Source: an uncultured Candidatus Saccharibacteria bacterium (lineage in GTDB: Bacteria; Patescibacteriota; UBA1384; XYA2-FULL-43-10; 1-14-0-10-43-13). From it: a DNA stretch of 64,000 nucleotides. Positions 1-29,540 of this stretch are shown in pieces (the first letter of the stretch is position 1; each line of letters begins with the position of its first letter). The notes beneath the pieces are model-generated. The model made no database searches. It was given only the letters and a program-made list of their open reading frames with translations, and was not told the DNA's origin. The stretch covers positions 64,450 through 128,449 of the forward strand of contig CAZVMH010000001.1 of the NCBI GenBank assembly GCA_964628585.1. Direction: 5' to 3'. The position numbers and the translations under genes were made by a program.

Positions 1-58
1 AAAACGATATGGTTACTATACAACTTCTCCACAAAATTGCAAATAAAATATAGCAAAA

Positions 59-85
59 CCCCTCCCCCCGGTCTGGGGGGAGGGG
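59..85 (-). terminator. GC-rich hairpin (11-bp perfect stem cccctcccccc/ggggggagggg, 5-nt loop) at the 3' end of the mtnP operon; on the minus strand it is followed by a U-rich tract (plus-strand A-run 41-58).
   Basis: Perfect inverted repeat read directly from the sequence. It lies immediately downstream of the 96..920(-) stop codon and marks the left edge of the GC-rich island. Confidence 0.6.
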
Positions 86-95
86 CGATTGCGCT

Positions 96-920
96 CTACT
101 TCTTGTAGTACTCGCGGTATGTCTCGGTGCAGTCACATTCGGTCTGTCTGTCGTCCGATAGTGCTGGCAGAACTTTGAGGAGCAGTTCTTTACCGAGCTC
201 GATGTTTCGGTGGAAGATGGGGAGTATCTCTTCCATCTTTCCGGGAGCTATTTGAAGCTCGTGCCGAACGCCAGGGTCGTAGTCCGTGATCATCGCTATG
301 CTTCCGTAGCAGATCCCGAGCATCCTGGCAAAATAGCACTCGGGATACTGTGTCATGTTCACAATGTCCCAGCCATTCCTGATGAAGTAGCTGCTCTCTG
401 CCAGGGTGGAGAACCGAGGTCCCTGAATCACAACCACGGTTTTGTCCTGATGGACCTTAATCCCGAGAAAGTTAGCCTCTTCACTGATCACTCTGCTGAC
501 GGTCGGACAGTAAGGGTTGGCCATGGGAGTGTGAACGACCAGGCCGTCCTGATCGAAGTTATCGTCACGTCCATAGGTTAGATTGACGAACTGACTTGGA
601 ACCACGAAGCTTCCTGGTTCTATCTCCTGCCTCAGGCTTCCGGCGATGCATGTCGCCAGAATCGCATTGACTCCTAAAGACTGGAGTGCAGCGATGTTCG
701 CCATGTATGGGATCCTGTGGGGAGGAATCGAGTGTTCTGGTCCATGTCTGGGCAAGAAGGCGATGGGTACTCCTCCATATCTCCCGAGGATGATTTCATC
801 AGAGGGCAACCCGTACATCGTATTTGGTCGCACCCTGTTATCAACCTCGAGCTCAGGCAGTTTGCATAGCCCCGAGCCACCAATCACTGCGATTCTGGCT
901 TTCTGTGTGCTCAATCTCAT
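96..920 (-). CDS. mtnP: S-methyl-5'-thioadenosine phosphorylase (PNP/MTAP family); also expected to accept 5'-deoxyadenosine
   Basis: 274-aa ORF with the MTAP-type N-terminus ARIAVIGGSGL and strong similarity to MTAP along its length (GPRFST..AES, DIVNMT, GICYGSIAMITDYD). The start overlaps the upstream rSAM gene by 4 bp (translational coupling). Confidence 0.8.
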   Translation of the reverse strand: MRLSTQKARIAVIGGSGLCKLPELEVDNRVRPNTMYGLPSDEIILGRYGGVPIAFLPRHGPEHSIPPHRIPYMANIAALQSLGVNAILATCIAGSLRQEIEPGSFVVPSQFVNLTYGRDDNFDQDGLVVHTPMANPYCPTVSRVISEEANFLGIKVHQDKTVVVIQGPRFSTLAESSYFIRNGWDIVNMTQYPECYFARMLGICYGSIAMITDYDPGVRHELQIAPGKMEEILPIFHRNIELGKELLLKVLPALSDDRQTECDCTETYREYYKK

Positions 921-2257
921 ACTCCTTTGTCATTCAGCCAGAGAAGATAGTCGAAAGCCTCCTCGGCGAATATGGTTGACGCTAGGTCCTGTTCCATATA
1001 GTCGCCAGAAAGCTCAATGTTGTTCCATGCACAACCGCCTCCGCAAAGGCTTTTGGCATCTAATTCATCGTATGCCGGGTTGAAGATTGGCAGGCGTTGT
1101 CTCCATTGCTGGGCAGTCTCCGACTGCCAGATCCTGAAGTTCGTGCCTACCAGTTCGGTGACATCTCCCATATCATTGCGGTAGAAAGGACAGTTTGTCA
1201 CTTGACCGTTTGGCTGAACCACAATCTGGCTACCGTAGCAGGTGCAGTCAACGGGGAAGAAGTTCTTGCCCGTGAGACCAGAGTACTTCTTCTCCATCTG
1301 AAACTCAAAGTCGGTCCTGTCCTGATTTTGGAAACCCCTGATCATTGCCTGGGCAGCTTGCCTGTAGAAGGTCTCCGCGTCAACGCCTGGATAATCCGCT
1401 AATGCACGCCCTTTGAGAAGGTTGAAGCCAAACTTCTCGACTCCCAGTTCCACGAGAGTCTGATAGTAGCTATCCACCACCTCGATGTTGTCCGGGGTGA
1501 TGCTGACAGATGCACAGGTTGTAATGTTGTTGCTGACCAGTATCTTTATCGCTTCGATGACCTGATCGGTCGAATTGGTCGGTTGTTGTGCCTGTCGAGC
1601 TCGATTGTGCTTGGCATCAAATCCGTCGATTCCAACCGAAACGATCACGTCATGTTTCTGACACAGACCGATCGTTTTGTCATCAATGAGCAGACCGTTG
1701 GTCGCAATCATCTTTCTGATGCTGCCTGGCAAGAGGCCACCCTGTTGCAGTTCGTGGAGATACTCGAGAGTATTGGTGATAATCGGCATATTCAGCAGCG
1801 GCTCACCGCCGTAGAAGATCACATAATAGTCTCTGTTCTCGTCGTACAGCTCTGCCAGATGTTCTCTCCATAGCCACACTCCTGCTCGAGCATGCGTGTC
1901 GGTCATGTTGATTGGCCCATACTGATCGGCCAAGCTGGGAACCGGGCAGTAGCTACATGCCAGGTTGCAGTGTTGAGCTGTCAAGAGATAAAGGATGATG
2001 GTCTGGTTGAGGTTCTGGTTGGTGCGCTGTTGAACCATCCTCAATTCTGCCTGGTCTTCCTCTTGTCTACTTATCAAAAGTCGTTTCTCCACCAGCACAG
2101 TTGCCAATGGGGAGGCAAAATCCGGGTGTTCCAGAAAGGAATCCCAGGATCTTGCGGTCAGAAAGATCGGCTCGGGGTGCAGTTCGTGAAAGATGGCTAC
2201 ACGGGTCCCTCGCCTGCGCTCCCTGAGGTATTTAGAGAAGAGCAATCTACTGTTCAA
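917..2257 (-). CDS. Radical SAM enzyme with C-terminal SPASM-type auxiliary Fe-S domain (peptide-modifying maturase-like); the ~95-aa N-terminal extension is a possible RiPP-recognition element
   Basis: 446-aa ORF with the canonical CxxxCxxC motif (CNLACSYC). Its C-terminal Cys cluster (CTCYG...CPFY...CGGGCAWNN) is typical of SPASM/twitch domains. It sits immediately downstream of the small Cys-peptide gene. Confidence 0.75.
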   Translation of the reverse strand: MNSRLLFSKYLRERRRGTRVAIFHELHPEPIFLTARSWDSFLEHPDFASPLATVLVEKRLLISRQEEDQAELRMVQQRTNQNLNQTIILYLLTAQHCNLACSYCPVPSLADQYGPINMTDTHARAGVWLWREHLAELYDENRDYYVIFYGGEPLLNMPIITNTLEYLHELQQGGLLPGSIRKMIATNGLLIDDKTIGLCQKHDVIVSVGIDGFDAKHNRARQAQQPTNSTDQVIEAIKILVSNNITTCASVSITPDNIEVVDSYYQTLVELGVEKFGFNLLKGRALADYPGVDAETFYRQAAQAMIRGFQNQDRTDFEFQMEKKYSGLTGKNFFPVDCTCYGSQIVVQPNGQVTNCPFYRNDMGDVTELVGTNFRIWQSETAQQWRQRLPIFNPAYDELDAKSLCGGGCAWNNIELSGDYMEQDLASTIFAEEAFDYLLWLNDKGV

Positions 2258-2344
2258 GGATCCTGATTCCTTTCCTGTTTATTAAAGAACAATGAAACGG
2301 CCCAGCTGGAATAACCTCTCCAACTGGGCCCTGCGTCTTCTTCG

Positions 2345-2536
2345 CTAGCGCGCGGTCTTGCCGAGCTCGGCGAACTCTGCTCTGGTGAGCGTGATCTTGC
2401 CGCCGTGGTCGTCTGTGATCGTGACCTCGCTTGTCTTAATCACCGCCTGCGGGCAACACCCCTGGACACCACACATTGTGACGATCGTCGGATCCGCGTC
2501 TGTTCCGGAACCTTTCCTGTCCTGAAGCTTCTTCAT
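2345..2536 (-). CDS. Small (63 aa) Cys-containing protein, candidate precursor/substrate peptide for the adjacent rSAM-SPASM enzyme (motif TMCGVQGCCPQ)
   Basis: ORF preceded by a strong SD (GGGAGGTG, 7-nt spacing) and a near-consensus promoter. It is the first gene of the operon, directly upstream of the rSAM gene. No TM segment or recognisable enzyme motif. Confidence 0.5.
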   Translation of the reverse strand: MKKLQDRKGSGTDADPTIVTMCGVQGCCPQAVIKTSEVTITDDHGGKITLTRAEFAELGKTAR

Positions 2537-2585
2537 CTTGAATCACCTCCCTTGCCGATGAAGACGGCACCTAATCTCAGATTAC

Positions 2586-2613
2586 ATAATACCACAGTTG
2601 GCTGTACTGTCAA
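2586..2613 (-). promoter_or_regulatory. Sigma70-type promoter (minus strand: TTGACA, 16-nt spacer, TATTAT) driving the peptide/rSAM/mtnP operon
   Basis: Minus-strand TTGACA (plus 2608-2613) and TATTAT (plus 2586-2591) with 16-nt spacing, about 40 nt upstream of the peptide start codon. Confidence 0.55.
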
Positions 2614-2619
2614 CGCCAA

Positions 2620-4302
2620 TCAACAAATATCATTGCCCCTAGGTTTATCGACACCGATACTTTCCAGATACGACTGAAGATCGCTCAGTTCCTTGACTGA
2701 GCCATCCTCGATCATAAATAGCTTGTTGGCGGAGATAGTCTCAAGGAAATGGCGATCATGCGAGACGAAGATCACCGTACCCTTGTAAGTGGAAAGAACC
2801 TTCTCGAGTGCATCTAATGCATCAACATCGAGATGATTAGTTGGCTCATCTAGCACAAGTACATTAGCAGAATTGAGTGAAAAGAGTGACATTGCCAGTC
2901 TGGCCCTTTCTCCAGGACTGATTTCACCAATCTCTTTTGTACTGATTGCTTCTGGTGTGAAGTTGAAGTTGGCCAGGACATGATAGAGCTCGGTTATACT
3001 TGACAAAGAACCGTCTCGAAGGAAATCGAGCACGTTCATGTTCCTTGGCATATCTCCGTGAGTCTGTGTGAGATTGCCGAATACAACCGATGGACTTATC
3101 CTGACTATGCCGCTAATAGGCGACAGTTCTCCGGTAATTGTTCGGAGTAGGGTAGATTTACCCGTTCCGTTTTTCCCGATGAAGCCAATCCTCTGTCCAA
3201 AACCAATCTCAAGAGAAACTGGTTCTAAAGCAAAGCCATCTTTGTAACCCACTACTGCTCGACGAAGACGAATTGCAGTATCTGCTTCGCTATGCTTTGG
3301 CGCTAGGGGAATTATGGTGGGTTCTCTGTCGCGCTTCAGCTTTACGAGTTTGATGCCAGAAATCTGCTGTTCGATTGCCTTTGCTTTGGCCGCCGACTTG
3401 CCAGAACGATCTCTTTGGGCACCGCGAACAAACTTATCGTTGTCGCGAGTATCCTGTCTGCTTCCCTGGTCGCTCCATGACTTGATCTGGCGAGCACTTT
3501 CTTCTAGTCGAACGATCTCGTCTTTTTGTCTTTCGTGTTCTAGCTGGTCTCTTCTCATCTTTGCTAATCTGCGGTCGATATAACAGGAATAGTTACCTGC
3601 GTATTCGACAAGATTGCGATCATACCAATCGATCTCGAAGACCTTGCTCACTATTTTGTCCAAAAAGTAGCGGTCATGAGAAACGATCAAGCAAGCAGCT
3701 TTGCATGAAGACAGAAAAGATTCAAGCCACACGATAGATGGTAAGTCGAGATTGTTGGTTGGCTCATCGAGGAGCAAGACGTCCTTACCTTGAAGGAGTG
3801 TTCCTGCTAGAGCTACCTTGGAGCGCTGACCTCCACTCAATGTTGATATTTGTCGACTTGGTTCAATTCCAGCCAGTCCAAGTCCGGCCAAAACTTTGGC
3901 CATGGTGTGATCAAAGTCGTAGCCATCATTATCCATATAGAGCTGAAGTGTATTGGAATACTCCTCGGCCTTTTCTGGATCATCGAGCTGACCAGCAAGT
4001 ACTTCTAGTTGGTCTTCGAGCTCAGCGATTCCGACAAATTCCTTGAGATACCTCTCTATGGTCAGTCCTGTCTTTCCAAGAACTATCTCCTGAGGAAGGT
4101 AACCTAAGCGCCTTTCGGCACTTATTTGGACGTTGCCAGAATCGGGCTCCTCCAACCCTGCCAAAATCTTAAGCAGGGTAGACTTTCCACTTCCGTTTGA
4201 GCCAACAATTGCCACTTTCTGTCCAAGATTAAGGAAGAAAGAGACATCGACAAGAACATCTTGGCCCGCGTAGGACTTTGAAATGTTGTTAGCTGATATC
4301 AT
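2620..4302 (-). CDS. ABC-F family ATPase (two tandem ABC nucleotide-binding domains, no TM domain; EttA/Uup/YbiT-like translation factor or ARE-type)
   Basis: 560-aa ORF with two Walker A motifs (GSNGSGKST, GKNGTGKST), two LSGGQ signatures and a charged linker between the domains. Confidence 0.8.
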   Translation of the reverse strand: MISANNISKSYAGQDVLVDVSFFLNLGQKVAIVGSNGSGKSTLLKILAGLEEPDSGNVQISAERRLGYLPQEIVLGKTGLTIERYLKEFVGIAELEDQLEVLAGQLDDPEKAEEYSNTLQLYMDNDGYDFDHTMAKVLAGLGLAGIEPSRQISTLSGGQRSKVALAGTLLQGKDVLLLDEPTNNLDLPSIVWLESFLSSCKAACLIVSHDRYFLDKIVSKVFEIDWYDRNLVEYAGNYSCYIDRRLAKMRRDQLEHERQKDEIVRLEESARQIKSWSDQGSRQDTRDNDKFVRGAQRDRSGKSAAKAKAIEQQISGIKLVKLKRDREPTIIPLAPKHSEADTAIRLRRAVVGYKDGFALEPVSLEIGFGQRIGFIGKNGTGKSTLLRTITGELSPISGIVRISPSVVFGNLTQTHGDMPRNMNVLDFLRDGSLSSITELYHVLANFNFTPEAISTKEIGEISPGERARLAMSLFSLNSANVLVLDEPTNHLDVDALDALEKVLSTYKGTVIFVSHDRHFLETISANKLFMIEDGSVKELSDLQSYLESIGVDKPRGNDIC

Positions 4303-4316
4303 CAGTTCTTCCTTTC

Positions 4317-4330
4317 CTCGAAATTTCGAG
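4317..4330. promoter_or_regulatory. Perfect 14-bp palindrome CTCGAAATTTCGAG in the 5' leader of the ABC-F gene, just upstream of its RBS; possible operator or leader hairpin
   Basis: Palindrome read directly from the sequence. Its distal edge is 15 nt from the ABC-F start codon. Confidence 0.3.
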
Positions 4331-4439
4331 AGATGCCACGCTCTTGCGAGTCGTCAAGCAATGTTAACATAATATTTATTTAATTACAACACAAAATAAA
4401 GAATATTGCTATACTTTACGATAAGCATTTTTTAGAAAA

Positions 4440-4979
4440 TTATTCCAATACGTGATTGAGGATCTTTTTAACAGTTTCTTCAGGAGATAGAGTGCTATCA
4501 TCGATTACAAAAGAGTCGACAAAGGGGACGGTTTTGTCTGTTTTATGTTTAGCCTCAATGTTTTCTAATATATTTTTGTCGGTTAATTTCTTAAACTCTT
4601 TTCTTGAAGGCAAGTTTAAGCGTTTTAATTGTTCTTCTTTGGAACATTCCAGCTTAACAAAAACTGTTTTACCTGTTTTATTGATATTTATCATTTTCTT
4701 TATGAAGTCATCATCATATTTTCCCTCAAAAGTTTCAAGACCGTAGGCGTAAGTCATAATCAGACCGGACAACTTATTTTTTACACATAGCTCAATTATT
4801 TGAAGTCGTATGCTGGTCGCGAGTTCGGAATATTGTATTGTTCCTGACTCAAAAATAGAACCAGCCAAATCGGCGGTCAGGTGATTGTGAAATAATTTGT
4901 AACCAGTTTTGTCTTGGAGTGCTTTTGCAACGGTATATTTACCGGTTGCTGGGGCTCCATAAATAAATATCAATTCCAT
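4440..4979 (-). CDS. P-loop NTPase / small-molecule kinase-like protein (TmrB / AAA_33-like)
   Basis: 179-aa ORF with an N-terminal Walker A motif (GAPATGKYT). Its size and layout resemble P-loop kinases such as TmrB or CPT. AT-rich gene. Confidence 0.5.
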   Translation of the reverse strand: MELIFIYGAPATGKYTVAKALQDKTGYKLFHNHLTADLAGSIFESGTIQYSELATSIRLQIIELCVKNKLSGLIMTYAYGLETFEGKYDDDFIKKMININKTGKTVFVKLECSKEEQLKRLNLPSRKEFKKLTDKNILENIEAKHKTDKTVPFVDSFVIDDSTLSPEETVKKILNHVLE

Positions 4980-4998
4980 ACAATTTTTATACCATTTA

Positions 4999-6546
4999 TT
5001 ATAATTGTTGTCTATCTATCTTGCGTTCTGTTAAACTAAAAGCGGACAGTATTAGAAGGATAAGAAAGATGAGAACAAATAAGAGAGCAGTTGGAATTAT
5101 AACAAAAGATGGTAAAATACTTCTTTTTAGGCGAGTCAAAGACAACGAAGAATATTTTTCTGGACTATTTTTTATATCTTCAATTAGCTCTTTCCAGTTT
5201 GTCCACTTCCAGTCGGAAGCTTCTTCGGGGTTTAATTCTGGTTCTTTATCGTATCTTCCGACAAAAACATGATCGTATTCGTATTCAGTTAACTTTCCCA
5301 AATTTGCTTTGTAAGTGAAAGAAAAGGTCTCTTTTAGCTCGGTATCTAAACCCATCTCTTCTTTTAATCTTCGGTGGGCCACATCAACAGTCTCTTCGCT
5401 TGGCGCCGGGTGACTGCAACAGGTATTGGTCCACAAGCCAGGAGAGTGATATTTTTCATCTGCTCGTTTTTGCAACATCAACTCGTCTTTCGAATTGAAA
5501 ACAAAGATTGAAAAACATCGGTGCAGTTTTCCATCTCGATGAACTTGCATCTTTTCTCCCGTCCCGATTTCCCTGTCATTCTCATCAACCAAGATTATGT
5601 CGTTCATTTTTAGTATTCTCCGCTTTGAAAAAATACCTGTGAATATTGGGACAGGCAGAAGAGCGAATCCTGCTTGAATTGGACTCCAGCCCAAAGTATT
5701 TTGGAGGAAGAAGGTAAGAACAAAAGACATGCCAATTACAGAAACCATTACAATAAAACTTATTATGTTTGAGGCGGTAAAGGTTTGATTCTGGAAGAGA
5801 TGAAAATCAAGCAGAGAATTTTTTAATCGCTTCTGGTAATAGTAAAGGGCTACCAAAAATAGAAAACCTAAAATCAGAAACAGTTTATTGATTTGTGATA
5901 ACGATAGGGCGATAGTAACAAGTCCAAGAGCAAGAAGCGCCACACTACCATAATCGAGTTTAATTTCTTTATTAGCTGGTAGATCTGGAATATATTTGGA
6001 TGAAATGATTAAGCCTACAATGACAAGTGGAACATTAATTAAAAATAATAAGTGCCAGCCGTAAAACTGACCAATATTAATATTTGACAACATTCCGCCA
6101 ATAATGGGACCGACTAACATACCAGCGGCAAATGTTCCAGCGGTTACAGCAAAAGCTTTCTCTCGTTCTTTCCAGAGATGGGCAATAATTGCCATTGGCA
6201 TAGTATATAGAATAGCAATCGAAATACCTTGGACTGCACGTAATGCAATCATTATTTCAATATTACTGATAAACCCGAGCACTAAAGACGATAGTCCGAA
6301 AAGAGATAGGCCCCAAATATACAATTTTTTAGGTCCAATTTTGTCACCCAATTTGCCCATAAAAATCAAAAAAATTATCAAGGCAAGGGTGAGGGCATTT
6401 GGTATCCATTGGGTGAGAGAAATAGGAATATCTAATGTAGAAGTGATTTTTGGCAAAGCAACATTTAACCCCGTGCTGTCTATGGCACCGAGAAGGTCGG
6501 CAGTTGCAACAGCAACAAGAATAAGGGTTAAATTATTTTTTTTCAT
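4999..6546 (-). CDS. Chimeric protein: an N-terminal MFS (DHA2-like) transporter half of ~8 TM segments, a type-1 isopentenyl-diphosphate isomerase (NUDIX) domain, and a C-terminal TM helix
   Basis: Residues ~1-310 are hydrophobic helices with MFS motifs (GKLGDKIGPKK loop). Residues ~315-480 match IDI type 1 (NTCCSHP, E-rich NUDIX box, W..W). The last 40 aa form a TM helix. The ORF is continuous. Confidence 0.6.
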   Translation of the reverse strand: MKKNNLTLILVAVATADLLGAIDSTGLNVALPKITSTLDIPISLTQWIPNALTLALIIFLIFMGKLGDKIGPKKLYIWGLSLFGLSSLVLGFISNIEIMIALRAVQGISIAILYTMPMAIIAHLWKEREKAFAVTAGTFAAGMLVGPIIGGMLSNINIGQFYGWHLLFLINVPLVIVGLIISSKYIPDLPANKEIKLDYGSVALLALGLVTIALSLSQINKLFLILGFLFLVALYYYQKRLKNSLLDFHLFQNQTFTASNIISFIVMVSVIGMSFVLTFFLQNTLGWSPIQAGFALLPVPIFTGIFSKRRILKMNDIILVDENDREIGTGEKMQVHRDGKLHRCFSIFVFNSKDELMLQKRADEKYHSPGLWTNTCCSHPAPSEETVDVAHRRLKEEMGLDTELKETFSFTYKANLGKLTEYEYDHVFVGRYDKEPELNPEEASDWKWTNWKELIEDIKNSPEKYSSLSLTRLKRSILPSFVIIPTALLFVLIFLILLILSAFSLTERKIDRQQL

Positions 6547-7345
6547 CAGGTGTAAGCATTAAGTTTGGGTCAAACATTACATATTCAGGGGCAACCTTGA
6601 CTGGTAATCCCAGCGCGACTCTTTTAGCTGCAATTACTGTCAAGGCCGAAAGAATATATGACGCAGAGACTGGCTGTGGGAAGTGCGGGAGTTTTCCTTC
6701 AGTAAATTCCATTGCAATTTTTTGAACATATGGAGGCATAATTTTTACAAAGAATTCAATGAATTTCTCAAATGCAACTACATTATCAACTTTGTCCATT
6801 GGGGTTTTAGGGTCTAGGCCAATCATTTTTTCATAAGAAATTGAATCAGGAGTAAATACTTGTATCATAGCCCCCCAACCAACATCGGTAGGCTGAATCA
6901 CGGATTTCTTATACTTCTGTGCCGCTCTATGCATTGCCAACACTGCTATTGCAGCATCGGGGTCAATTGTGTCAATTACAATGTCGGACTTTCTTACAAG
7001 CCTTTCTGCGTTTTTTGCATCAACAAAAATCGGGAACTTCTTAATCTTTGCATGGGGATTAATTGCTCTAATTTTACGAGCCAGGGCATCAACTTTAAAT
7101 TTTCCAACATCACGCCACGTGTACCCCTGCCGGTTATTGTTAGAAATTTCGATCGTATCGCCATCGACTAATATAAACCTTTCGAATCCAATACGAGTAG
7201 CAGAGAGTGCAACTTGAGAACCGACACCGCATCCAGCAATTAAGAGTGTTGTGTCGCTAATTTTTTGCTGTTCTTCTTCTGTTAACAGCCCTAGATTCCG
7301 AGAATGATGTTCTTTTTGAAAGAGTTCTTTATCAATCTTTGGCAT
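6533..7345 (-). CDS. ThiF/MoeB/TcdA-family E1-like adenylyltransferase; no C-terminal CxxC motifs, closest in layout to tRNA t6A dehydratase TcdA/CsdL
   Basis: 270-aa ORF with a Rossmann GxGxxG (IAGCGVGSQ) and a DGD..E..SNNNRQ motif typical of E1-like enzymes. It overlaps the downstream gene by 14 bp. Confidence 0.65.
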   Translation of the reverse strand: MPKIDKELFQKEHHSRNLGLLTEEEQQKISDTTLLIAGCGVGSQVALSATRIGFERFILVDGDTIEISNNNRQGYTWRDVGKFKVDALARKIRAINPHAKIKKFPIFVDAKNAERLVRKSDIVIDTIDPDAAIAVLAMHRAAQKYKKSVIQPTDVGWGAMIQVFTPDSISYEKMIGLDPKTPMDKVDNVVAFEKFIEFFVKIMPPYVQKIAMEFTEGKLPHFPQPVSASYILSALTVIAAKRVALGLPVKVAPEYVMFDPNLMLTPDEKK

Positions 7346-7435
7346 GATGTTTTTTATAAATAATTAGATAGCATAAATTTATCACTATCGGTCTACAAAA
7401 GCAATGAAATCGCGTTCATTGTTGATATCTTAGTG

Positions 7436-7464
7436 TTGACGAAAAATATCTGGCTTGTTAGAAT
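7436..7464 (+). promoter_or_regulatory. Sigma70-like promoter (TTGACG, 17-nt spacer, TAGAAT)
   Basis: -35 at 7436-7441 and -10 at 7459-7464, inside the 358-bp intergenic region upstream of 7704(+). Confidence 0.45.
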
Positions 7465-7470
7465 AGCTAA

Positions 7471-7640
7471 GTCGCTCAAAATGCTAGCCACTGACGACTC
7501 GGCGCCATTGGTGCTAGAAATATATCGGTCATCTGACCAAAAATGGCATGCTGAATTCATCAGTGTGCCATTTTCGTTATGCAAGATTTAGTTTTTTTGT
7601 AGAACAAAATAAGGGGCACTTACGAGCGCGCCTTATTTAA
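7471..7640 (+). ncRNA. Candidate small RNA or structured 5' leader (~170 nt) lying between the predicted promoter and a GC-hairpin plus U-tract
   Basis: An extended hairpin AAATGGCA-tgCTGAattcaTCAGtg-TGCCATTT is followed by a T-run. A second hairpin (AAGGGGCAC...GCGCGCCTT) is followed by TTTAAATATTTGTTTG. The region has no convincing ORF; the 63-aa antisense ORF 7393..7584 looks spurious. Confidence 0.25.
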
Positions 7641-7703
7641 ATATTTGTTTGTTTGTGGTACATTATTGGTGCTAGGATTTAATTAATTAAGCATAATAAA
7701 ACT

Positions 7704-8453
7704 ATGATCACTCAAATTTGTGGAAAGAAGAGAGCAGTATTATTTCCTGCCAAATCACAATCAGATAAATTCGTCCTGTTCTTAACTGGTTTCCCAAAAT
7801 ATCCCGCATCCAACAACTTTATCGATTTTTTTGTTGAGAATAATTACAACGTGATTTGCCCTCTCTACACGGGAACTTTTGATAGTATGGGAGATTTTTC
7901 GATTAGTAATTGTATTGAGGATGTTAGGGATTGGTTTAACTTTATTAAAAAGGGAGAGTATTTTTTTGGGCCTCAAAGGCCAAAGCAAGAGATTGAAGCA
8001 TCGGAGATAGTGTTTTTCTCTCACAGTTTCGGCTCCTACATTTTGGACTTGGCACTTCGAAAATATGATTTTGAAGGTGTTGAAAAAACGATGTTTGTTT
8101 CTCCTCTTAGTAGGCCCAACAATCATCAAACTCAAGAAAGTGGTAAAATCTCCAAAACGACTGAAGAAATGGTGGCTCGGAACTATCCTCTTTCCTATAG
8201 ATTTGGAAATAAATCAGAATTTTTTGGCGAAATTGCTGGAGACGTGATCAATCCATTGTCTTCAGAAAAAATTAAGTCTAGCAAATTGAAAGCACTCGTA
8301 CTGGTCGGAGACCAAGATCAGGTGACACCAAAGGAAATGGCCACATCTTTGGCCCAAGATTATCCGGGGAGCACTCTGAAAATTATTGGCGGCGGCCATT
8401 CTTCATCGATTGATTTTGTGGCGGCCTCCAAGTTAATCGAAGAATTTATATAA
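7704..8453 (+). CDS. Alpha/beta-hydrolase fold esterase/lipase-like protein
   Basis: 249-aa ORF with a nucleophile-elbow pentapeptide HSFGS (GxSxG) and a C-terminal GGGHSS motif consistent with the catalytic His region. Confidence 0.55.
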   Translation: MITQICGKKRAVLFPAKSQSDKFVLFLTGFPKYPASNNFIDFFVENNYNVICPLYTGTFDSMGDFSISNCIEDVRDWFNFIKKGEYFFGPQRPKQEIEASEIVFFSHSFGSYILDLALRKYDFEGVEKTMFVSPLSRPNNHQTQESGKISKTTEEMVARNYPLSYRFGNKSEFFGEIAGDVINPLSSEKIKSSKLKALVLVGDQDQVTPKEMATSLAQDYPGSTLKIIGGGHSSSIDFVAASKLIEEFI

Positions 8454-8478
8454 TATAATTTAAATTGTAACATAAAAG

Positions 8479-8504
8479 AAAGGCGTTGCTCTCGCAACGC
8501 CTTT
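8479..8504. terminator. Bidirectional intrinsic terminator hairpin (11-bp perfect stem AAAGGCGTTGC/GCAACGCCTTT, loop TCTC) between the convergent hydrolase and tyrS genes
   Basis: Perfect inverted repeat with a U-rich flank on the plus side. It sits 26 bp after the 7704..8453 stop codon and 29 bp after the tyrS stop codon. Confidence 0.65.
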
Positions 8505-8532
8505 CGGTGTGTTTTCCTCCCTTTGATTCTGG

Positions 8533-9726
8533 CTACTTGAGCCTGATTTGGGCGAACTTGATCTTTCCTGCCCGCAAAATGCAGTCGTGGGTGATCATGT
8601 AGCCGATGTCAGACACTTTCTCGCCATCAATTCGGGCTCCGCCTTGCTCGATGAGGCGCCTGGCGCCGTTTTTCGATTCGGCGAACCCAATTGTTGTCAG
8701 TACATCTACGATGTTTGCCGGACTAATCGCATAGGTCGGCATGCTCTCTGGCGTTTTCCTCTCCTGGAAAACCCGATTGAACTCATCCGCAGCCTTCTGG
8801 GCAATTACGGATCCGTGAAGGTCAGCGACAATCTCAATCGCTAGCGCGAGTTTGATGTCGCGGGGATTAGCCTTTCCCGATTTCATGTCGAGTTCAGATT
8901 TCTCGATGGTTTTGCGCGGTATCCGCGTCAAATGAATCAGGTATGGCACTATCATGTCGTCCGACATGCTCATGAGTTTTCCGAGCATATCGTTGGGGCT
9001 GTCGGTCAGGTTGATGGTGTTGCCCCAGGACGAGCTCATCTTCCTTCCGTCCAAGCCATTGATCAGAGTTGTCATGATCAGGGCTTGGGGCTTTGCTTGG
9101 TGGGCGCGTTGTATCTCTCGGCCTGCCAGCATGTTAAATCTCTGGTCAGTACCACCAACCTCAATGTCAGCGCTAAGGTAAAGCGAGTCGTACCCCTGCA
9201 TTATGGGGTAAACCATTTCTCTGACCGAGACCCTCTTGCCCTCTTGGAGCCTCTTGGCGATGTTAGATCTCGCCGAAAACTCCGCTAGGGTGAATAAGTT
9301 GGTCAGTGCCAGGAAACGACCGAAGTCCATCTGGCTCCACCAAGACTTATTGTAATGGACTTCAGTCTTCGCGAGATCTAGTATCTGCCCAATCTGCTGG
9401 GTATATGTCCGCATATTGGTTGCGACTACATCTGCGGATACTGCAGGACGCTCGCTCTCTTTGTCGCTCGTGTCGCCAATCTCGGCCGTGAAGTCTCCTA
9501 TAATCAGGACTATCTGGTGGCCAAGCTTCTGCAGATCACGCAAGAGCATAATCGGGATAGCCCTTCCAAGATGAATGTTCTCGCTGGTTGGATCGGTGCC
9601 CCACTTAATCCTTAGGGGCGGGCCACTTAGAAGGTCAACCATGCTGGTATCGGAGATGATCTCTTGGATGTGTCCCCGGTCGAGCAGTTCTGTTACGGCG
9701 GAAACTCTTTTGGCGTGATTCATCAC
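8533..9726 (-). CDS. tyrS: Tyrosyl-tRNA synthetase (class I; degenerate HIGH = IHLG, KMSKS = KMSSS, C-terminal S4-like domain)
   Basis: 397-aa ORF with DPTS..IHLG, GGTDQ and GRKMSSS motifs and a C-terminal GARRLIEQGGARIDGEKV S4 motif. The gene is GC-rich (about 52% GC). Confidence 0.8.
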   Translation of the reverse strand: MMNHAKRVSAVTELLDRGHIQEIISDTSMVDLLSGPPLRIKWGTDPTSENIHLGRAIPIMLLRDLQKLGHQIVLIIGDFTAEIGDTSDKESERPAVSADVVATNMRTYTQQIGQILDLAKTEVHYNKSWWSQMDFGRFLALTNLFTLAEFSARSNIAKRLQEGKRVSVREMVYPIMQGYDSLYLSADIEVGGTDQRFNMLAGREIQRAHQAKPQALIMTTLINGLDGRKMSSSWGNTINLTDSPNDMLGKLMSMSDDMIVPYLIHLTRIPRKTIEKSELDMKSGKANPRDIKLALAIEIVADLHGSVIAQKAADEFNRVFQERKTPESMPTYAISPANIVDVLTTIGFAESKNGARRLIEQGGARIDGEKVSDIGYMITHDCILRAGKIKFAQIRLK

Positions 9727-10514
9727 ATACTCCTTTTCGCGGTGACGATGTCACCTATTCTGAATGGACTTGAGGTAGTTGTGAGCTTGCGCACACAGCC
9801 TACTTCAGCAAGTCCTAGCGAGCTACCCTTGTAGATTGCCCAGGTGCTGTCTGGCAGGTTCTTCATGGCGTGTGAGAAGGTAACAACTTGCCAATCGTTG
9901 CCGTTGATGGCCAACTGCAACTTCTCTCCCTCGGCTAAGCTAGGGGGGAGTAACATCTTTACCTTAGCAACGCCGAAGTTGTCAATATGAACGATTGTGC
10001 CGTCAGCGATCTCTAACCGTGTAAGGCGGTTGGGATCAAACTTGCATTTGTATCCGTTAAGATTGGCCATACTGGCCACCTTGACCGCCTCTGGTGCGTG
10101 GAAATACTTACCACCGAAGGAAATGAACTGAACGCCATCAAGTCCTTCGGATGAATACTCGTACACTTCGCTCAGACCGAAATCGTCCAGTAGCCAGCTT
10201 AAGGCGCCGGTGTTTTCGGCCACAAATCGAATTCCGTTCTGGGTCCGGCCAACAAGCCGGGCTCGATTTGCGCGGGCAGTAGGTAGAGCGTTAGCTACAA
10301 TCAGTAAGACAGTGCTTAACGGATCGCAACTTTCTGCTAGTAGGCGAACCAGAAAGGCGCAATTGATGGTCGAGAATTCTTTGCAGTTGACGAACGGGTC
10401 GATTACTACTTTGTCTTCTTGGCCTAGCGCGTTTATGGTTCGATTGAGCGTCGCATGCAGTTCGTTGCTTGCGACATCGGTGCAATCGGTGAACGTTAGG
10501 ATTCTTGATTTCAT
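9723..10514 (-). CDS. SAM hydroxide adenosyltransferase family protein (DUF62 / fluorinase-chlorinase-like fold)
   Basis: A D-x-FG motif (IVHIDNFGVA) in the C-terminal domain and an N-terminal TDxxD-containing segment. The likely true start is 10514, where an AGGAGG SD lies 7 nt upstream; the longer ORF reaches 10583. Moderate similarity only. Confidence 0.5.
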   Translation of the reverse strand: MKSRILTFTDCTDVASNELHATLNRTINALGQEDKVVIDPFVNCKEFSTINCAFLVRLLAESCDPLSTVLLIVANALPTARANRARLVGRTQNGIRFVAENTGALSWLLDDFGLSEVYEYSSEGLDGVQFISFGGKYFHAPEAVKVASMANLNGYKCKFDPNRLTRLEIADGTIVHIDNFGVAKVKMLLPPSLAEGEKLQLAINGNDWQVVTFSHAMKNLPDSTWAIYKGSSLGLAEVGCVRKLTTTSSPFRIGDIVTAKRSM

Positions 10515-10533
10515 CTGGTTGCCTCCTTGTGGT

Positions 10534-11478
10534 CTACTCGAACACGGACACCTCATAAACACGGTCGTCGGCAGAGAAATCATATGTATCGATAATCTTA
10601 CCGCTCCAGTCTAGCTGAAGTATGCGATGGTTGTCGGCGTCAGCTGCAAAGATAGTATCGTCTTTTTGGCAGTGTATCGCGTCCTGAACCCAGGACATGC
10701 CGAGGTCTGCGCCCAACTCTTGCGTAAGCTCAAGCTGGTCGTTTAAGACCATGATCGTATTAGCAGACGTGTTGCAGAGAAGGTGCCTTCCTGCTCCTGC
10801 GTCTTTCAGGTTGTGGGGATTCTTGAGTCCCCTTAGCACAACCTGAATTGTGTCGGCTTCCTTGTCAATCAGTACAAGCTCGCCCGGATGGAAAAGTGTT
10901 GCCACGATTTTGCTTTCTTTTTCATCCACGTAGCGACAGTAATTGACGTGAGTCGTCTGGTGCAAGGAGGGGTATTCAACTCCCTGGTGTTTTGTCTCTC
11001 GATCAACGATCCTTTCGCCTCCGAGTTGATCTGACTTGTACCCATGCTCGGTAAACAAAAACGAGTAGATCGTTTTTCCAGAAGAGTCGACTTCTACTAT
11101 TGCATCGGTACCAGTGCTGGCTACCATCCAGCCAGAGCTAGTTTTTACCAAAGAATGTGGCTTGTTGAACAAGTCGTTATCTATGGTCGTCAAGATAGCC
11201 TTCTGGGATAACGATATTGCCAATATAGCACCGCTCCTAAGCGTGTTGGCCATCAACAAATCGTTAGATGCACGATAGGTTCCCGTGGGGCACTCGACTG
11301 TCATGCTCCAGGCGATTTTCTTTGTTGCCCAATCAATGATGTCTATACGGCCACCAAGTCTTTTCACGAAAGGCTTGTCGCTTCCTCTCTTTCCTTCGCT
11401 CATCAAAACGGAGTGTCTAGCCCAATGTCTCTTGAGCTGGTCGAAGTCTGTTGACAGATACGATGCCAATAAAAACAT
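10534..11478 (-). CDS. Hypothetical protein, possibly beta-propeller-like; function unknown
   Basis: 314-aa ORF in the GC-rich island, in an operon with the DUF62 gene and tyrS. No confident motif. Confidence 0.4.
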   Translation of the reverse strand: MFLLASYLSTDFDQLKRHWARHSVLMSEGKRGSDKPFVKRLGGRIDIIDWATKKIAWSMTVECPTGTYRASNDLLMANTLRSGAILAISLSQKAILTTIDNDLFNKPHSLVKTSSGWMVASTGTDAIVEVDSSGKTIYSFLFTEHGYKSDQLGGERIVDRETKHQGVEYPSLHQTTHVNYCRYVDEKESKIVATLFHPGELVLIDKEADTIQVVLRGLKNPHNLKDAGAGRHLLCNTSANTIMVLNDQLELTQELGADLGMSWVQDAIHCQKDDTIFAADADNHRILQLDWSGKIIDTYDFSADDRVYEVSVFE

Positions 11479-11490
11479 GTTTCTCCCTTC

Positions 11491-12135
11491 CTATCGACTT
11501 TCATTTATTGCATCAAGGACATCGGGGGATAGTTGTCTTAGCGCCACGCTCTCGTGTTCAAAATCGGTCTTGACCGTGAAACTGGCCGTAACAATTGCGC
11601 TTAGCGGATCGGACGATATGTTGCGATGCAGCGCAACGATAGCTTGAGCAAATTGTGGAATTATTATCGCTTGAGTCCCAACTAATCGGGCTTGCTCGAA
11701 TGCAAATAATTCCGCAGATGTGTGGAGACATTCGGATACAGGTATCGTTGTCTGGCCGCTCACAGTCTTCTTCTCGGGAAGGCATTTCACAAATTCACGA
11801 AAAGTAATGCGTTCCAGCATTGCGATTACTCCCCGCAGATATTCAGAAGATGTCATTGCAGCGCTCATTAGATGCACTGACGAATATAGTCCCGATATAG
11901 CAGAAAAAAACTCGCGGTTGAGCTCTTCTTGCTCTATGGCCGACCGTCCGAAGACTGCCATCGGCAGATAGTCATCCACAAAGATGCTGGGCTTTCTATA
12001 AGTGCAGATCTCAGACAATACTGAGTGCATTAGAAAACCAGGACCTGGTGGTCGGTTCGCCCACAGGACGATCCCGAAGGGGTGTTCAACACTGATCGGA
12101 CCCATGAATCCCTTGATATAGTCCCCAATTTTCAC
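11491..12135 (-). CDS. Hypothetical protein
   Basis: 214-aa ORF with GC-rich coding statistics and the same orientation as its neighbours. No recognisable motif. Confidence 0.4.
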   Translation of the reverse strand: MKIGDYIKGFMGPISVEHPFGIVLWANRPPGPGFLMHSVLSEICTYRKPSIFVDDYLPMAVFGRSAIEQEELNREFFSAISGLYSSVHLMSAAMTSSEYLRGVIAMLERITFREFVKCLPEKKTVSGQTTIPVSECLHTSAELFAFEQARLVGTQAIIIPQFAQAIVALHRNISSDPLSAIVTASFTVKTDFEHESVALRQLSPDVLDAINESR

Positions 12136-12241
12136 GTCATTTCCTCCAGTAATGTCAAAGAGCCTTGTCGAGAAACCAACGATTTACGATGGTCATTGCA
12201 ACGGCTAGTTATAACACCCACAAGCTGGGCCTGTCAAGCAA

Positions 12242-12469
12242 ATGTGCTGGCTCACCACTTTTCTAATAGCAGGATTTGTGTTATTGTGGATGCGAAGCAT
12301 TGTTGTTCGAAAGGAGAAAGCGGTGAGACTCGCAAAAAGGACCCTAATCGCGGTTTCTGTCCTAGCTGTTGTTATCTTGGGGGTATACTATGCAGGAGTA
12401 TTGAACTGCAATACCCCAGAGAACGCAGCGATGTACACCCGTGTCGTTCATAGCATGGGCGTGCAGTAA
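12242..12469 (+). CDS. Possible small two-TM membrane protein (75 aa)
   Basis: ORF with two hydrophobic helices. No SD could be identified, so it is questionable. Confidence 0.25.
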   Translation: MCWLTTFLIAGFVLLWMRSIVVRKEKAVRLAKRTLIAVSVLAVVILGVYYAGVLNCNTPENAAMYTRVVHSMGVQ

Positions 12470-12508
12470 CTTAGCCTGTCGCTCAAACTAGAGTAATAGG
12501 GAACCAGT

Positions 12509-12540
12509 CGTTTCAGGGGCGTGATTACGCCCCTGAAACG
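12509..12540 (+). terminator. Strong hairpin (14-bp perfect stem CGTTTCAGGGGCGT/ACGCCCCTGAAACG, loop GATT) at the right boundary of GC island 2
   Basis: Perfect inverted repeat. No U-tract follows; the next gene's RBS (AAGGAA) and ATG do. It could be a terminator, an RNA-stability element or an island-boundary element. Confidence 0.4.
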
Positions 12541-12557
12541 AAGGAACATATAGAATT

Positions 12558-13232
12558 ATGACAAATTTCATTAAAAAAGAATCTGCACATTATGATTTTT
12601 TCTTTTTTCCAGATTCGCTGGCCGAAAAGGAAATTGATAAAATTATAAAAATCCAGGAATCGGCTTACGCCAAAATTTTGGAATTTTTGGGTGTGGAAAA
12701 TAATCGAAAGATTAATTACTTTCTATATCCATCAAACACAGTTAAAGGTAAAATAATGGGTGACGACGGTAATGGAAATGCCGACCCTAAAAAGTTTGAA
12801 GTGCATGCTGTTTATAACGAAGATGTCAAATGCATTGGTCCACACGAAGATACCCACCTATTGGCAATACCATTAGGGTTGCCTCCTCAACTTTTTCGTG
12901 AGGGCTTAGCCGAATATATGAGCGAAAAATGGGACAGCAGAAGCCATGCCCAGTGGGCAAGTCAATTTCTGTCTGAAGGAAAATTGCCAAATCTGGAACA
13001 GATTATCGATGATGAAGAGTGGTATGAATGTGACGATCTGGTTGCATATCCATCGGCAGGATCCTTTGTAACCTTTTTAACCACAAAAATTGGCAAAGAA
13101 AAATTTCTTGATTTATATAAAGCACTAAGTCGTGATTTTACTCCAGAAAAGAATAAAGATATTCTCAAAAAAATTACAGGTTCATCAATTTCTGAACTAC
13201 AAAAAGAGTGGGAAATCTTGCTGAAAAGATAG
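12558..13232 (+). CDS. Hypothetical protein with an HExxH motif (GPHEDTHLLA); putative zincin-like metallopeptidase fold
   Basis: 224-aa AT-rich ORF preceded by an RBS. The HEDTH motif is the only recognisable feature. Confidence 0.4.
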   Translation: MTNFIKKESAHYDFFFFPDSLAEKEIDKIIKIQESAYAKILEFLGVENNRKINYFLYPSNTVKGKIMGDDGNGNADPKKFEVHAVYNEDVKCIGPHEDTHLLAIPLGLPPQLFREGLAEYMSEKWDSRSHAQWASQFLSEGKLPNLEQIIDDEEWYECDDLVAYPSAGSFVTFLTTKIGKEKFLDLYKALSRDFTPEKNKDILKKITGSSISELQKEWEILLKR

Positions 13233-13354
13233 TAATTTTCTTATAACTTCTATATTGCTGGACTGTTATTTTATTGTATCAGGGCCATTTTTGTGATACA
13301 AAAAATGTAGTAGTAAAGTACCTGCTTTAGGGCAGAAGACAGGGGGCATCTGAA

Positions 13355-13801
13355 TTGAGGAGAAATCTGTTTCTTGCAGTAGTGCTCGTAGTTGTGATGC
13401 TAATGCTGGTCGGCTGCGGCGGTGGAGGCGGAGGGGGCTCGAATCCTCCGGGAAACCTGAACAAAGATGTGATCAAGGGAAAGATCACAGGCAACTGGGC
13501 GGGGGCGACCAATCTTGTAGTGCACTTTTACTACATTGATGATTGGGGACACGCCCAGACAGTTGCGACAGCAAACGTGAACCCAGATGGATCTTACCAG
13601 ATCACGATTCCACAGTCGGCAGAAGTGATCGGCGAGTACTACTCGCTCAATCTGTGGCGCGGTTCTATCTACGCGGGATCTGGCAAGGGTCTGTTTAGCT
13701 ACTTTGGGACCAATGATATTTGGCGCTGGGCAGAGGACGCATTTTCGCCAGACATCCCGATATCTGGACGTCAGTTCGACATTGAGTACTGGTCGCCGTA
13801 G
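13355..13801 (+). CDS. Lipoprotein (signal peptide with lipobox LVGC followed by a Gly8-Ser linker); function unknown
   Basis: N-terminal MRRNLFLAVVLVVVMLMLVGCGGGGGGGSNPPG. Short GC-rich gene. Confidence 0.55.
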   Translation: MRRNLFLAVVLVVVMLMLVGCGGGGGGGSNPPGNLNKDVIKGKITGNWAGATNLVVHFYYIDDWGHAQTVATANVNPDGSYQITIPQSAEVIGEYYSLNLWRGSIYAGSGKGLFSYFGTNDIWRWAEDAFSPDIPISGRQFDIEYWSP

Positions 13802-13827
13802 GGAAGGCGACAACGTTGTCATCATAG

Positions 13828-13857
13828 TTGGCGGCCGCATATTTGCGCGGCCGCCAA
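13828..13857 (+). terminator. GC-rich hairpin (11-bp stem TTGGCGGCCGC/GCGGCCGCCAA, 8-nt loop) 27 bp after the lipoprotein stop codon, followed by a T-rich tract
   Basis: Perfect inverted repeat that happens to contain two NotI-like GCGGCCGC sites. It marks the right edge of GC island 3. Confidence 0.55.
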
Positions 13858-13866
13858 TTGAATATT

Positions 13867-13895
13867 TTGACCTGGTTTAGAAATCATTATATAAT
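13867..13895 (+). promoter_or_regulatory. Sigma70-like promoter (TTGACC, 17-nt spacer, TATAAT) for the sortase gene; the predicted TSS coincides with the ATG, implying a leaderless mRNA
   Basis: -35 at 13867-13872 and -10 at 13890-13895. The start codon is at 13902, 7 nt after the -10. Confidence 0.45.
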
Positions 13896-14606: not shown

Positions 14607-14623
14607 ATTTTATATTAGATATG

Positions 14624-14657
14624 AAAAAACAGCGCATATTTCAGGCTGTTTTTTTGC
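14624..14657. terminator. Bidirectional intrinsic terminator (stem AAAAAACAGC/GCTGTTTTTT with an extra T-run) between the convergent sortase and vWA genes
   Basis: Inverted repeat with U-tracts on both strands. Confidence 0.6.
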
Positions 14658-14700
14658 ATATATTATCTACCAGACTACTTAACTATTGATACATAAACTC

Positions 14701-22515: not shown

Positions 22516-22546
22516 TATCGAACGTAAGTTTGGGCATAATCAAATT

Positions 22547-23935: not shown

Positions 23936-23949
23936 CGAAAGGACATAGC

Positions 23950-24951: not shown

Positions 24952-24952
24952 T

Positions 24953-27151: not shown

Positions 27152-27175
27152 AATAGACCAAAGGAATTATCGGAG

Positions 27176-27865: not shown

Positions 27866-27901
27866 AAATGATTTTTCTAGCAATTTTCGATTTCGTTTTT
27901 G

Positions 27902-27930
27902 TTGACTTTATTTTTATTGGTGGTTACTAT
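27902..27930 (+). promoter_or_regulatory. Sigma70-like promoter (TTGACT, 17-nt spacer, TACTAT) upstream of purF
   Basis: -35 at 27902-27907 and -10 at 27925-27930. purF starts with GTG at 27988, preceded by an AGGAGG SD. Confidence 0.45.
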
Positions 27931-29523: not shown

Positions 29524-29540
29524 TTTATCCAATAGTACTA

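Follow-up and report, generated by a model that had tools for sequence, protein, structure and literature searches.

GC-rich islands of a Patescibacterium are correctly assembled operons and, for the tyrS operon at least, not simple recent imports

In a 64,000-nucleotide stretch of DNA from an uncultured Candidatus Saccharibacteria bacterium (contig CAZVMH010000001.1; hereafter the window), sharply bounded GC-rich islands are set into AT-rich DNA. These islands are real, correctly assembled operons, and at least the operon that carries tyrS, encoding tyrosyl-tRNA synthetase (TyrS), is not a simple recent gene import. Comparisons with related loci show for this operon, as far as sequences can tell, that an island has been inherited beside a compositionally normal neighbor and has kept its GC excess after full synonymous turnover. 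The host is evidently a Patescibacterium (Candidate Phyla Radiation, CPR). Named homologs of its TyrS and of its radical S-adenosylmethionine (rSAM) enzyme belong to Moranbacteria, Parcubacteria, Uhrbacteria, Pacebacteria and Minisyncoccales, and its backbone carries a run of synthetase genes, gyrA/B, infB, DUF4012 and sortase/pilin genes.

A compositional mosaic delimited by genes and operons

By segment, GC content is 0.259 (1-58), 0.500 (59-4302, island 1), 0.371 (4303-8478), 0.498 (8479-12540, island 2), 0.346 (12541-13320), 0.537 (13321-13860, island 3) and 0.369 (13861-64000). In 1-kb windows the backbone from 14 to 64 kb has a mean GC of 0.369 (sd 0.029, maximum 0.420), and the islands lie 4-5 sd outside this distribution. 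Likelihood segmentation finds change points at 2571, 4359, 8481 and 13855, and the island edges are therefore gene or operon ends. An earlier reading of the DNA made from its letters and open reading frames (ORFs), here called the sequence-only reading, had proposed that GC switches abruptly at gene boundaries; segment GC, GC at third codon positions (GC3) and segmentation all agree with it. Its GC-rich island at 59-4302 holds overall, but the ABC-F gene within it is only intermediate. Its gene labels stand for the MTAP-like phosphorylase, the radical SAM/SPASM enzyme, ABC-F, MFS+NUDIX, ThiF and TyrS, but the DUF62 match is weak. The GC-rich genes are listed below with the lengths of some products in amino acids (aa).

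96-920, minus strand: MTAP-like (PNP_UDP_1) phosphorylase; GC 0.53, GC3 0.63 (Pfam PNP_UDP_1, 1e-38)
917-2257, minus strand: radical SAM/SPASM peptide-maturase-like enzyme; GC 0.51, GC3 0.62 (Radical_SAM 1e-15, SPASM 8e-4)
2345-2536, minus strand: 63-aa Cys-rich peptide; GC3 0.77, the highest in the window
2620-4302, minus strand: ABC-F (ribosomal-protection-like) ATPase, a separate unit; GC 0.46, GC3 0.45
8533-12135, minus strand: clade-specific four-gene operon (the next four entries); GC 0.48-0.52, GC3 0.47-0.65
8533-9726, minus strand: TyrS, passing the TIGR00234 cut-off
9723-10514, minus strand: DUF62-like (E = 4e-4)
10534-11478, minus strand: hyp314, beta-propeller
11491-12135, minus strand: hyp214
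12242-12469, plus strand: small GC-rich ORF, likewise in island 2, with a hydrophobic 48-75 aa product; GC 0.47, GC3 0.53; AAAGGAG-like ribosome-binding site
13355-13801, plus strand: orphan lipoprotein gene with signal peptide, lipobox and Gly run; GC 0.53, GC3 0.60

The GC contrast is mainly synonymous and is strongest at third codon positions. Island genes have GC3 values of 0.47-0.77 (ABC-F, 0.45), compared with 0.30-0.37 for the genes between islands and 0.23-0.44 for 33 backbone genes. Codon usage per gene, a check that the sequence-only reading had proposed, separates islands from backbone in every codon family, with C3 and G3 each about doubled (C3 0.36 and G3 0.28 in island 1, 0.32 and 0.25 in island 2, 0.15 and 0.14 in the backbone). 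The encoded proteins differ as well. R/(K+R) is ~0.5 in island proteins versus 0.2-0.35 in the backbone; arginine equals or exceeds lysine in the former, whereas lysine is 2-7 times arginine in the latter, the six other synthetases included. By Karlin's GC-normalized dinucleotide distance (delta*), island 1 lies 154-173 and island 2 lies 107 from the backbone, compared with 48 +/- 18 for 4-kb chunks of the backbone itself. The value for the AT-rich block between the islands is 15, and this block is compositionally indistinguishable from the backbone. Spacer GC is 0.47-0.48 within islands versus 0.15-0.34 elsewhere. A foreign-type island composition is thus supported by codon usage, Arg/Lys usage and dinucleotide signature.

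The boundaries recur in independent assemblies

The alternative offered by the sequence-only reading was a chimeric metagenomic assembly joining organisms of different GC, in favor of which nothing speaks except the composition itself. We collected independent contigs by exact-protein look-ups in other Joint Genome Institute (JGI) samples and from Logan assemblies of separate runs, and aligned them to the window. Contigs from more than 10 other samples, produced by two pipelines, span all five boundaries at 99.9-100% identity: 4303 is spanned by eight contigs (L008-L015), 8479 by at least five (L001, L008, L018-L020), 12540 and 13320 by five (L003-L007), and 13860 by one (L004). Contig L008, 21 kb long and from a second strain, carries the whole mosaic and extends past window base 1, where GC goes down to 0.28-0.46. 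With every boundary spanned in other JGI and Logan samples, the chimera is refuted, and we give it practically no weight.

The island and backbone proteins are all recorded on one 187,319-bp NCBI contig. All sampled strains carry the islands, at ~99.9% identity, and the approximately nine single-nucleotide differences between strains within the islands cannot be polarized as to direction. Exact-sequence look-ups of the window's ABC-F and 274-aa MTAP returned no match, which reflects strain or start-codon differences.

The tyrS operon lies beside the same AT-rich neighbor in its relatives

The closest relatives of the window's TyrS form a small clade (P0001-P0014, 56-80% identity), and all others are at ~50%. 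The operon order of a 214-228 aa protein, a 314-318 aa protein, the DUF62-like protein and TyrS recurs in L021, L102/L103, L104/L105 and the P0002 contig. A convergent hydrolase of 247-249 aa comes next in four of five relative contigs, and the hydrolase adjoins tyrS in every relative with DNA. These loci also carry the GC excess. In L021 (TyrS 68% identical to that of the window) the module has a GC content of 0.42-0.51, the locus 0.395 and the hydrolase 0.317; the corresponding values are 0.38-0.43, 0.337 and 0.276 in L102 (TyrS 58%) and 0.38-0.42, 0.335 and 0.297 in L104 (TyrS 57%). The module exceeds its host by +0.07 to +0.13 in the relatives, while the hydrolase matches the host. In these relatives, GC rises at the operon's first start codon and falls again at the tyrS stop codon.

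The internal pattern of the module is shared, too. In all four lineages tyrS is the most GC-rich module gene, and the module genes rank alike by GC3 in the window and L021. Dinucleotide distances are 34-91 among the four lineages' modules versus 115-187 between each module and its own flanks. As a control, we took 53 other Patescibacteria loci from a metagenome scan, whose TyrS proteins are relatives at ~50% identity and not clade members. The GC of tyrS minus that of its flanks is +0.154 in the window versus +0.002 +/- 0.032 (maximum +0.052) in these loci, and GC elevation is therefore not a general property of tyrS.

Identities between window and L021 are similar for the module genes (58-71%), the hydrolase (63%) and the backbone tryptophanyl-tRNA synthetase TrpRS (68%), which points to co-inheritance. 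All five genes, the four of the module and the hydrolase, yield the topology ((window, L021), (L102, L104)). Every relative and strain sampled has island 2, whose distribution is thus not patchy. We also considered one large island split by a later AT-rich insertion; this is rejected, since tyrS adjoins the AT-rich hydrolase in all relatives. A genome-contig scan with TyrS had a Chloroflexia metagenome-assembled genome (MAG) as its sole match, at 44% identity, which is uninformative on a donor.

One comparison departs from this picture of shared descent. TyrS and hyp314 identities correlate across eight lineages (r = 0.91), with the window and contig c4787 as an outlier pair: TyrS is 80% and hyp314 64% identical, a residual of +0.12 (3.5 sd) that is spread over the whole gene. 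Contig c4787 (P0002) has a DDE transposase beside tyrS, at the hydrolase's usual place. The TyrS-specific incongruence between window and c4787 favors exchange within the clade as its probable source.

The GC excess persists at randomized fourfold sites

According to the amelioration model of Lawrence and Ochman, foreign DNA reportedly starts with the composition of its donor and converges to that of its host on the time scale of synonymous turnover. This is the framework behind the import proposed in the sequence-only reading. To apply it to the tyrS operon, we took the residues conserved between window and L021 and compared their fourfold-degenerate sites. Observed and random identities are 0.291 and 0.287 for TyrS, 0.298 and 0.262 for the DUF62-like protein, 0.268 and 0.257 for hyp314, and 0.341 and 0.251 for hyp214, or ~0.29 and 0.27 for the four genes pooled. 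GC at fourfold sites (GC4) is 0.64 in the window and 0.67 in L021 for TyrS, and 0.35 and 0.24 for the hydrolase. Unlike the expectation of the amelioration model, the sites have been randomized between lineages and the GC excess persists. Because TyrS GC4 is high in both lineages despite this randomization, the excess of the tyrS operon is a steady state and not an unameliorated relic.

A simple relaxation model leads to the same result. Pooled over the genes, residual identity does not exceed ~0.08, out of 0.73 possible, so that at most ~1/3 of an initial deviation survives. The present deviation of ~0.3 would therefore require a GC4 of more than 1 in the ancestor, an impossible value, which makes a single ancient import still in the course of amelioration untenable. 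Expressed as a logit, the GC3 offset is ~0.5-1.2 in each host, which is the size of a weak population-scaled bias.

The TrpRS orthologs, at 13330-14340 of L021 and 23950-24951 of the window, are 68% identical and have fourfold GC values of 0.62 and 0.28, respectively. Gene-level GC states thus differ between the two lineages.

Islands 1 and 3

The first three genes listed for island 1 constitute a conserved cassette that is widespread in Patescibacteria. The order of peptide, rSAM and MTAP-like genes is found also in L106 and L107 (the latter from an Uhrbacteria MAG), with the MTAP-like gene following the rSAM gene in both. The 62-65 aa peptides whose genes precede that of the rSAM enzyme in the window, L106 (2239-2436) and L107 (9736-9924) keep the motif CG..GCCP(E/Q)...DDxGGK(I/V)xLT, and no curated family matches them. 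Peptide GC3 is 0.86 in L106 and 0.76 in L107. The two cassettes have 0.53-0.60 GC in genomes of ~0.49 GC, and their identities to that of the window (45-53%) are similar to that of TyrS (50%). The 63-aa peptide is likely the substrate of the rSAM enzyme, and a promoter-like site lies at 2613-2586.

The rSAM enzyme scores 58.5 bits against Radical_SAM (cut-off 29.5) and 20.0 bits against SPASM (cut-off 21.5), and its best NCBIfam matches are maturases of ribosomally synthesized and post-translationally modified peptides (RiPPs), all far below cut-off. It has 380 homologs, of which those with names are Patescibacteria, and outside this species identity reaches 52% at best; the nearest sequenced relative is therefore apparently without an ortholog. 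A lateral gain of island 1 by the window's lineage is plausible. The MTAP-like protein reaches 245-264 bits with the NCBIfam MTAP models, under their equivalog cut-offs. In known rSAM/SPASM RiPP cassettes of the ranthipeptide, SCIFF or FibroRumin type, too, the gene of a SPASM-type rSAM enzyme is immediately preceded by one for a small Cys-rich peptide, and a hairpin separates the two. Unlike those, the window's cassette falls below curated cut-offs, its peptide is conserved rather than hypervariable, and an MTAP-like phosphorylase is a fixed third gene.

The ABC-F protein scores 425 bits against NCBIfam ribo_prot_ABC_F (cut-off 380). Its only relatives among the fetched loci, at ~40% identity, sit in Patescibacteria loci of 0.49-0.56 GC. 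A candidate synteny of ABC-F with TyrS in the GC-rich loci L060 and L087 was rejected, since gene order and intervening genes differ. In island 3, the lipoprotein was taken by the sequence-only reading for a Gly8 lipoprotein; the run after the lipobox Cys has seven Gly residues. Among 1.84 billion representatives, its own cluster alone matches at E < 1e-30, and the other matches are weak and to repeats in giant proteins.

Island edges are transcription-unit ends

The sequence-only reading had placed strong GC hairpins at 59-85, 12509-12540 and 13828-13857. All three are present, and two further strong hairpins were found (8478-8505 and 2299-2330). The five structures are as follows.

58-86, minus strand: terminator at the left edge of island 1; 12-bp stem with 10 GC pairs and T-rich tail; -34 kcal/mol, z = -6.0
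2299-2330, minus strand: hairpin between the peptide and rSAM genes; 13-bp stem; -28.2 kcal/mol, z = -4.7
8478-8505, both strands: bidirectional terminator between the convergent hydrolase and tyrS genes, at the edge of island 2; 12-bp stem with T tails on both strands; -22.7 kcal/mol, z = -5.2
12508-12541, plus strand: perfect 15-bp hairpin after the small ORF, at the right edge of island 2 (inverted repeat I20, 100% complementary); -30.2 kcal/mol, z = -7.1
13825-13860, plus strand: lipoprotein-gene terminator at the right edge of island 3; 14-bp stem with T-rich tail; -28.9 kcal/mol, z = -4.8

A GC-rich stem-loop followed by a T-run past a stop codon, as in rho-independent terminators, is found at 86-58 (minus), 2330-2299 (minus), 8478-8505 (both strands) and 13825-13860 (plus). 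The first of these lies 10 nt past the mtnP (MTAP-like gene) stop codon and is the terminator of the peptide-rSAM-MTAP operon. The hairpin at 12508-12541, which has no T tail, would also serve as a terminator. Terminator-like sites number 26 in 1-16.5 kb, versus 14.8 expected, and 13 in 16.5-36.5 kb, versus 14 expected, and strong GC hairpins are characteristic of the islands.

Since every island forms a transcription unit, the edge hairpins are best read as ordinary intrinsic terminators. There are no tRNA genes in the 64 kb, a direct-repeat search at the island edges found no repeat pairs bracketing any island, and no ORF of 1-19 kb has an integrase, transposase or conjugation Pfam domain. 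The hairpins are therefore operon ends rather than insertion scars. Scans of viral contigs with hyp314 and with the rSAM enzyme gave no match, and thus no sign of phage carriage.

Explanations for the mosaic

With slightly better than even confidence, we lean toward a genuine mosaic on one Patescibacteria chromosome whose units are operons. Four self-contained GC-type units (ABC-F, peptide-rSAM-MTAP, the tyrS operon and the lipoprotein gene) would sit among native AT-rich genes and share a GC-type signature consisting of codon choice in every codon family, substitution of Arg for Lys, biased dinucleotides and strong GC hairpins as terminators. The units would most likely derive from a GC-richer Patescibacterial gene pool, with ancestry within the phylum, and would be old residents rather than fresh imports. 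Homology indicates no donor outside the Patescibacteria, and the closest relatives of the island genes appear to be Patescibacteria as well. The tyrS operon would have stood beside the same AT-rich hydrolase since before the split from relatives with 57-68% TyrS identity, and its steady state would have to be maintained by a GC-ward process that is still at work and does not extend beyond the operon. The most likely process would be linked to recombination: alleles would be replaced time and again from related lineages richer in GC, or gene conversion would be GC-biased, or both would occur. We rank this process first because of the TyrS/hyp314 outlier pair with c4787. Selection on the GC content of the transcript seems less likely. 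A stronger statement, that certain operons of this clade are at a stable, operon-delimited GC equilibrium above that of the genome, never ameliorating and kept there across evolutionary distances at saturation by a force that acts locally toward GC (either selection on transcript GC or biased gene conversion in cassettes prone to recombination), is one we would make only tentatively, at somewhat less than even confidence.

Two published reports describe GC-biased gene conversion or GC selection in bacteria as GC-ward forces that are recombination-linked and can hold GC above mutational equilibrium (PMC4450053, PMC2936529). The GC3 logit offset implied here is in keeping with such forces. Reported effects of GC-ward forces in bacteria are modest and gene-wise, and we know of no description of a 0.15-0.27 GC3 step limited to one operon beside a normal neighbor.

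Several points weigh against this interpretation. The GC comparison rests on four lineages with DNA, two of which are close to each other, and the local background of L021 is heterogeneous (0.27-0.45), so that its offset is less clear-cut. The reasoning from saturation takes fourfold sites to be neutral and the module to have descended vertically. The elevated GC of non-coding island DNA is equally compatible with import as a block, and the one recombination tract observed between strains lies in the AT-rich block, not in an island. Islands 1 and 3 have no orthologous locus in a close relative by which to date them.

The sequence-only reading had instead proposed several independent, fairly recent acquisitions from higher-GC donors, with the excess not yet ameliorated. 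Part of this stands, since the composition is of a foreign type in its codons, amino-acid usage and dinucleotide signature and a gain of island 1 is plausible: island 1 has no ortholog above 52% identity, its non-coding DNA is GC-rich, the nearest sequenced relative apparently lacks it, and its cassette is GC-rich even in genomes of ~0.49 GC. A literature survey also reports many genomic islands in Patescibacteria, mostly with within-phylum donors and enriched in translation genes (PMC12455944). Island 2, however, is old and co-inherited, with the same boundary in relatives at synonymous saturation. Among 5.8 billion proteins there is no donor-like close homolog of any island, no integrase, tRNA or direct repeat accompanies them, and all sampled strains carry them nearly unchanged. 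We therefore consider recent import unlikely as the general explanation. Still less probable, in our estimate, is a relic of a GC-richer ancestral genome, in which the clade once had ~50% GC and the backbone drifted AT-ward while the operons lagged. The GC-type Arg/Lys usage of all 14 clade TyrS proteins would fit this idea, as would module GC that varies by lineage (0.40-0.50), as if at different stages of decay. But the co-inherited hydrolase and TrpRS are AT-type in codons and amino acids, and randomized fourfold sites allow no lag without an operon-specific force. We reject, as more improbable again, codon selection linked to very high expression of the islands with G/C-ending codons as the optimal ones. 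This would account for a GC step that runs from the first start codon to the last stop codon of the operon in relatives, for the top GC3 of the peptide gene, probably the most expressed, in three lineages, and for the shared GC3 ranking of module genes in window and L021. However, the genes for IF-2 (infB), GyrA/B, a pilin and six other aminoacyl-tRNA synthetases of the window have GC3 values of only 0.25-0.38, and the pattern is therefore not explained by expression level; the shift also affects every codon family, in both G3 and C3, and comes with replacement of Lys by Arg.

Relation to known systems

Compositional islands in Patescibacteria have been attributed to transfer (PMC12455944). 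The islands of the window resemble these in being sharp blocks with deviant GC, codon and dinucleotide composition, in their within-phylum ancestry and in carrying translation genes (TyrS, ABC-F). Unlike them, they are GC-rich in an AT-rich host and come without mobility genes, a tRNA site or repeats, and island 2 has kept its position and GC excess across saturated divergence instead of being a recent sporadic insertion. Of the usual marks of a genomic island, the window thus shows the deviant composition and lacks mobility genes and a tRNA or direct-repeat site; patchy occurrence is not seen for island 2.

Lateral replacement of aminoacyl-tRNA synthetase genes is a known phenomenon. As in such cases, the composition of TyrS differs from that of six other synthetase genes, and TyrS has a gene-specific affinity to one relative (80%, versus 64% for its neighbor). 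Unlike in such cases, this TyrS is of the Patescibacterial type (~50% identity to TyrS of Moranbacteria and Parcubacteria) and travels with three clade-specific genes.

Related patterns occur in other loci. In L106 and L107, both from mid-GC Patescibacteria, gene-by-gene GC3 looks bimodal (~0.33-0.45 versus 0.57-0.86), and in parts of the phylum compositional mosaics at the operon scale may be widespread. The tyrS loci L044, L056 and L059 of the metagenome scan, from another Patescibacterium, have a reverse mosaic in which tyrS lies ~0.09 GC below its flanks.

Other genes of the tyrS operon and its surroundings

The predicted model of hyp314 (pLDDT 90) is a beta-propeller, and a fold search with it returned generic beta-propeller matches only, with no function. 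Of the hyp314 family, 5.8 billion proteins yield only 13 clusters, and every one is on contigs of the tyrS-operon clade. The DUF62-like gene is intact in the window and L020 and is frameshifted at 10416-10432 in other strain contigs, by a +1 insertion in L008 and L018 and a 17-bp deletion in L019; this may reflect ongoing gene loss or a mutable site. For the small ORF at 12242-12469, a gene is called in strain contig L018, and the ORF is not found upstream of the operon in relatives.

The AT-rich features around the islands are listed below.

4303-8478: native-type AT-rich block; GC 0.371, dinucleotide distance to backbone 15; contains the next four genes
4440-4979: kinase-like gene
4999-6546: MFS+NUDIX fusion
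6533-7345: ThiF gene
7704-8453: alpha/beta hydrolase gene, convergent with tyrS
12558-13232, plus strand: AT-rich gene for a 224-aa hypothetical protein, located between islands 2 and 3; GC 0.36, GC3 0.30

Positions 5635-7190 of the AT-rich block differ between strains. The ORF at 4999-6546 fuses the N-terminal half of an MFS protein to a NUDIX/IDI-like domain. In strains L008 and L018 an unrelated 1065 bp (L008 5666-6731), holding a response-regulator-like fragment, replaces window positions 5635-6805, and the NUDIX gene is free-standing (202 aa). The part of ThiF at 6805-7190 is ~15% divergent between strains and looks like a recombination tract. The 224-aa hypothetical protein has no family match and a single relative (38%), in a Patescibacteria locus.

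Directly past island 3, at 13902-16269, lie a sortase gene, with a promoter-like site at 13867-13895, and a VWA/SpaA-type pilin gene, both of native AT-rich composition. Synthetase genes are dense at 19024-34346, where IleRS, CysRS, TrpRS, Val/LeuRS-like, PheS and PheT are encoded within ~15 kb; TyrS of island 2 is 10 kb away from this cluster. The IleRS-like synthetase (19024-22515, 1163 aa) has a His_Phos_1 (histidine-phosphatase) domain at residues 506-678, between the halves of its catalytic domain, and a class I synthetase encoded at 6444-9692 of locus L106 is built in the same way. The window also contains a heliorhodopsin gene at 60550-61305 (Pfam E = 1e-100).

Implications

Atypical GC is a standard flag for recent horizontal transfer, surveys of Patescibacteria included. 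The tempting explanation by misassembly is wrong for this MAG. If our interpretation of the islands is true, composition-based island callers would over-call recent transfer in such genomes, the islands would be unreliable as markers of recent transfer, and the amelioration clock would fail locally. The tyrS operon would then be a tractable system in which to measure a bacterial GC-ward force that is gene-local, and the adjoining hydrolase gene, convergent with tyrS, would be its built-in control.

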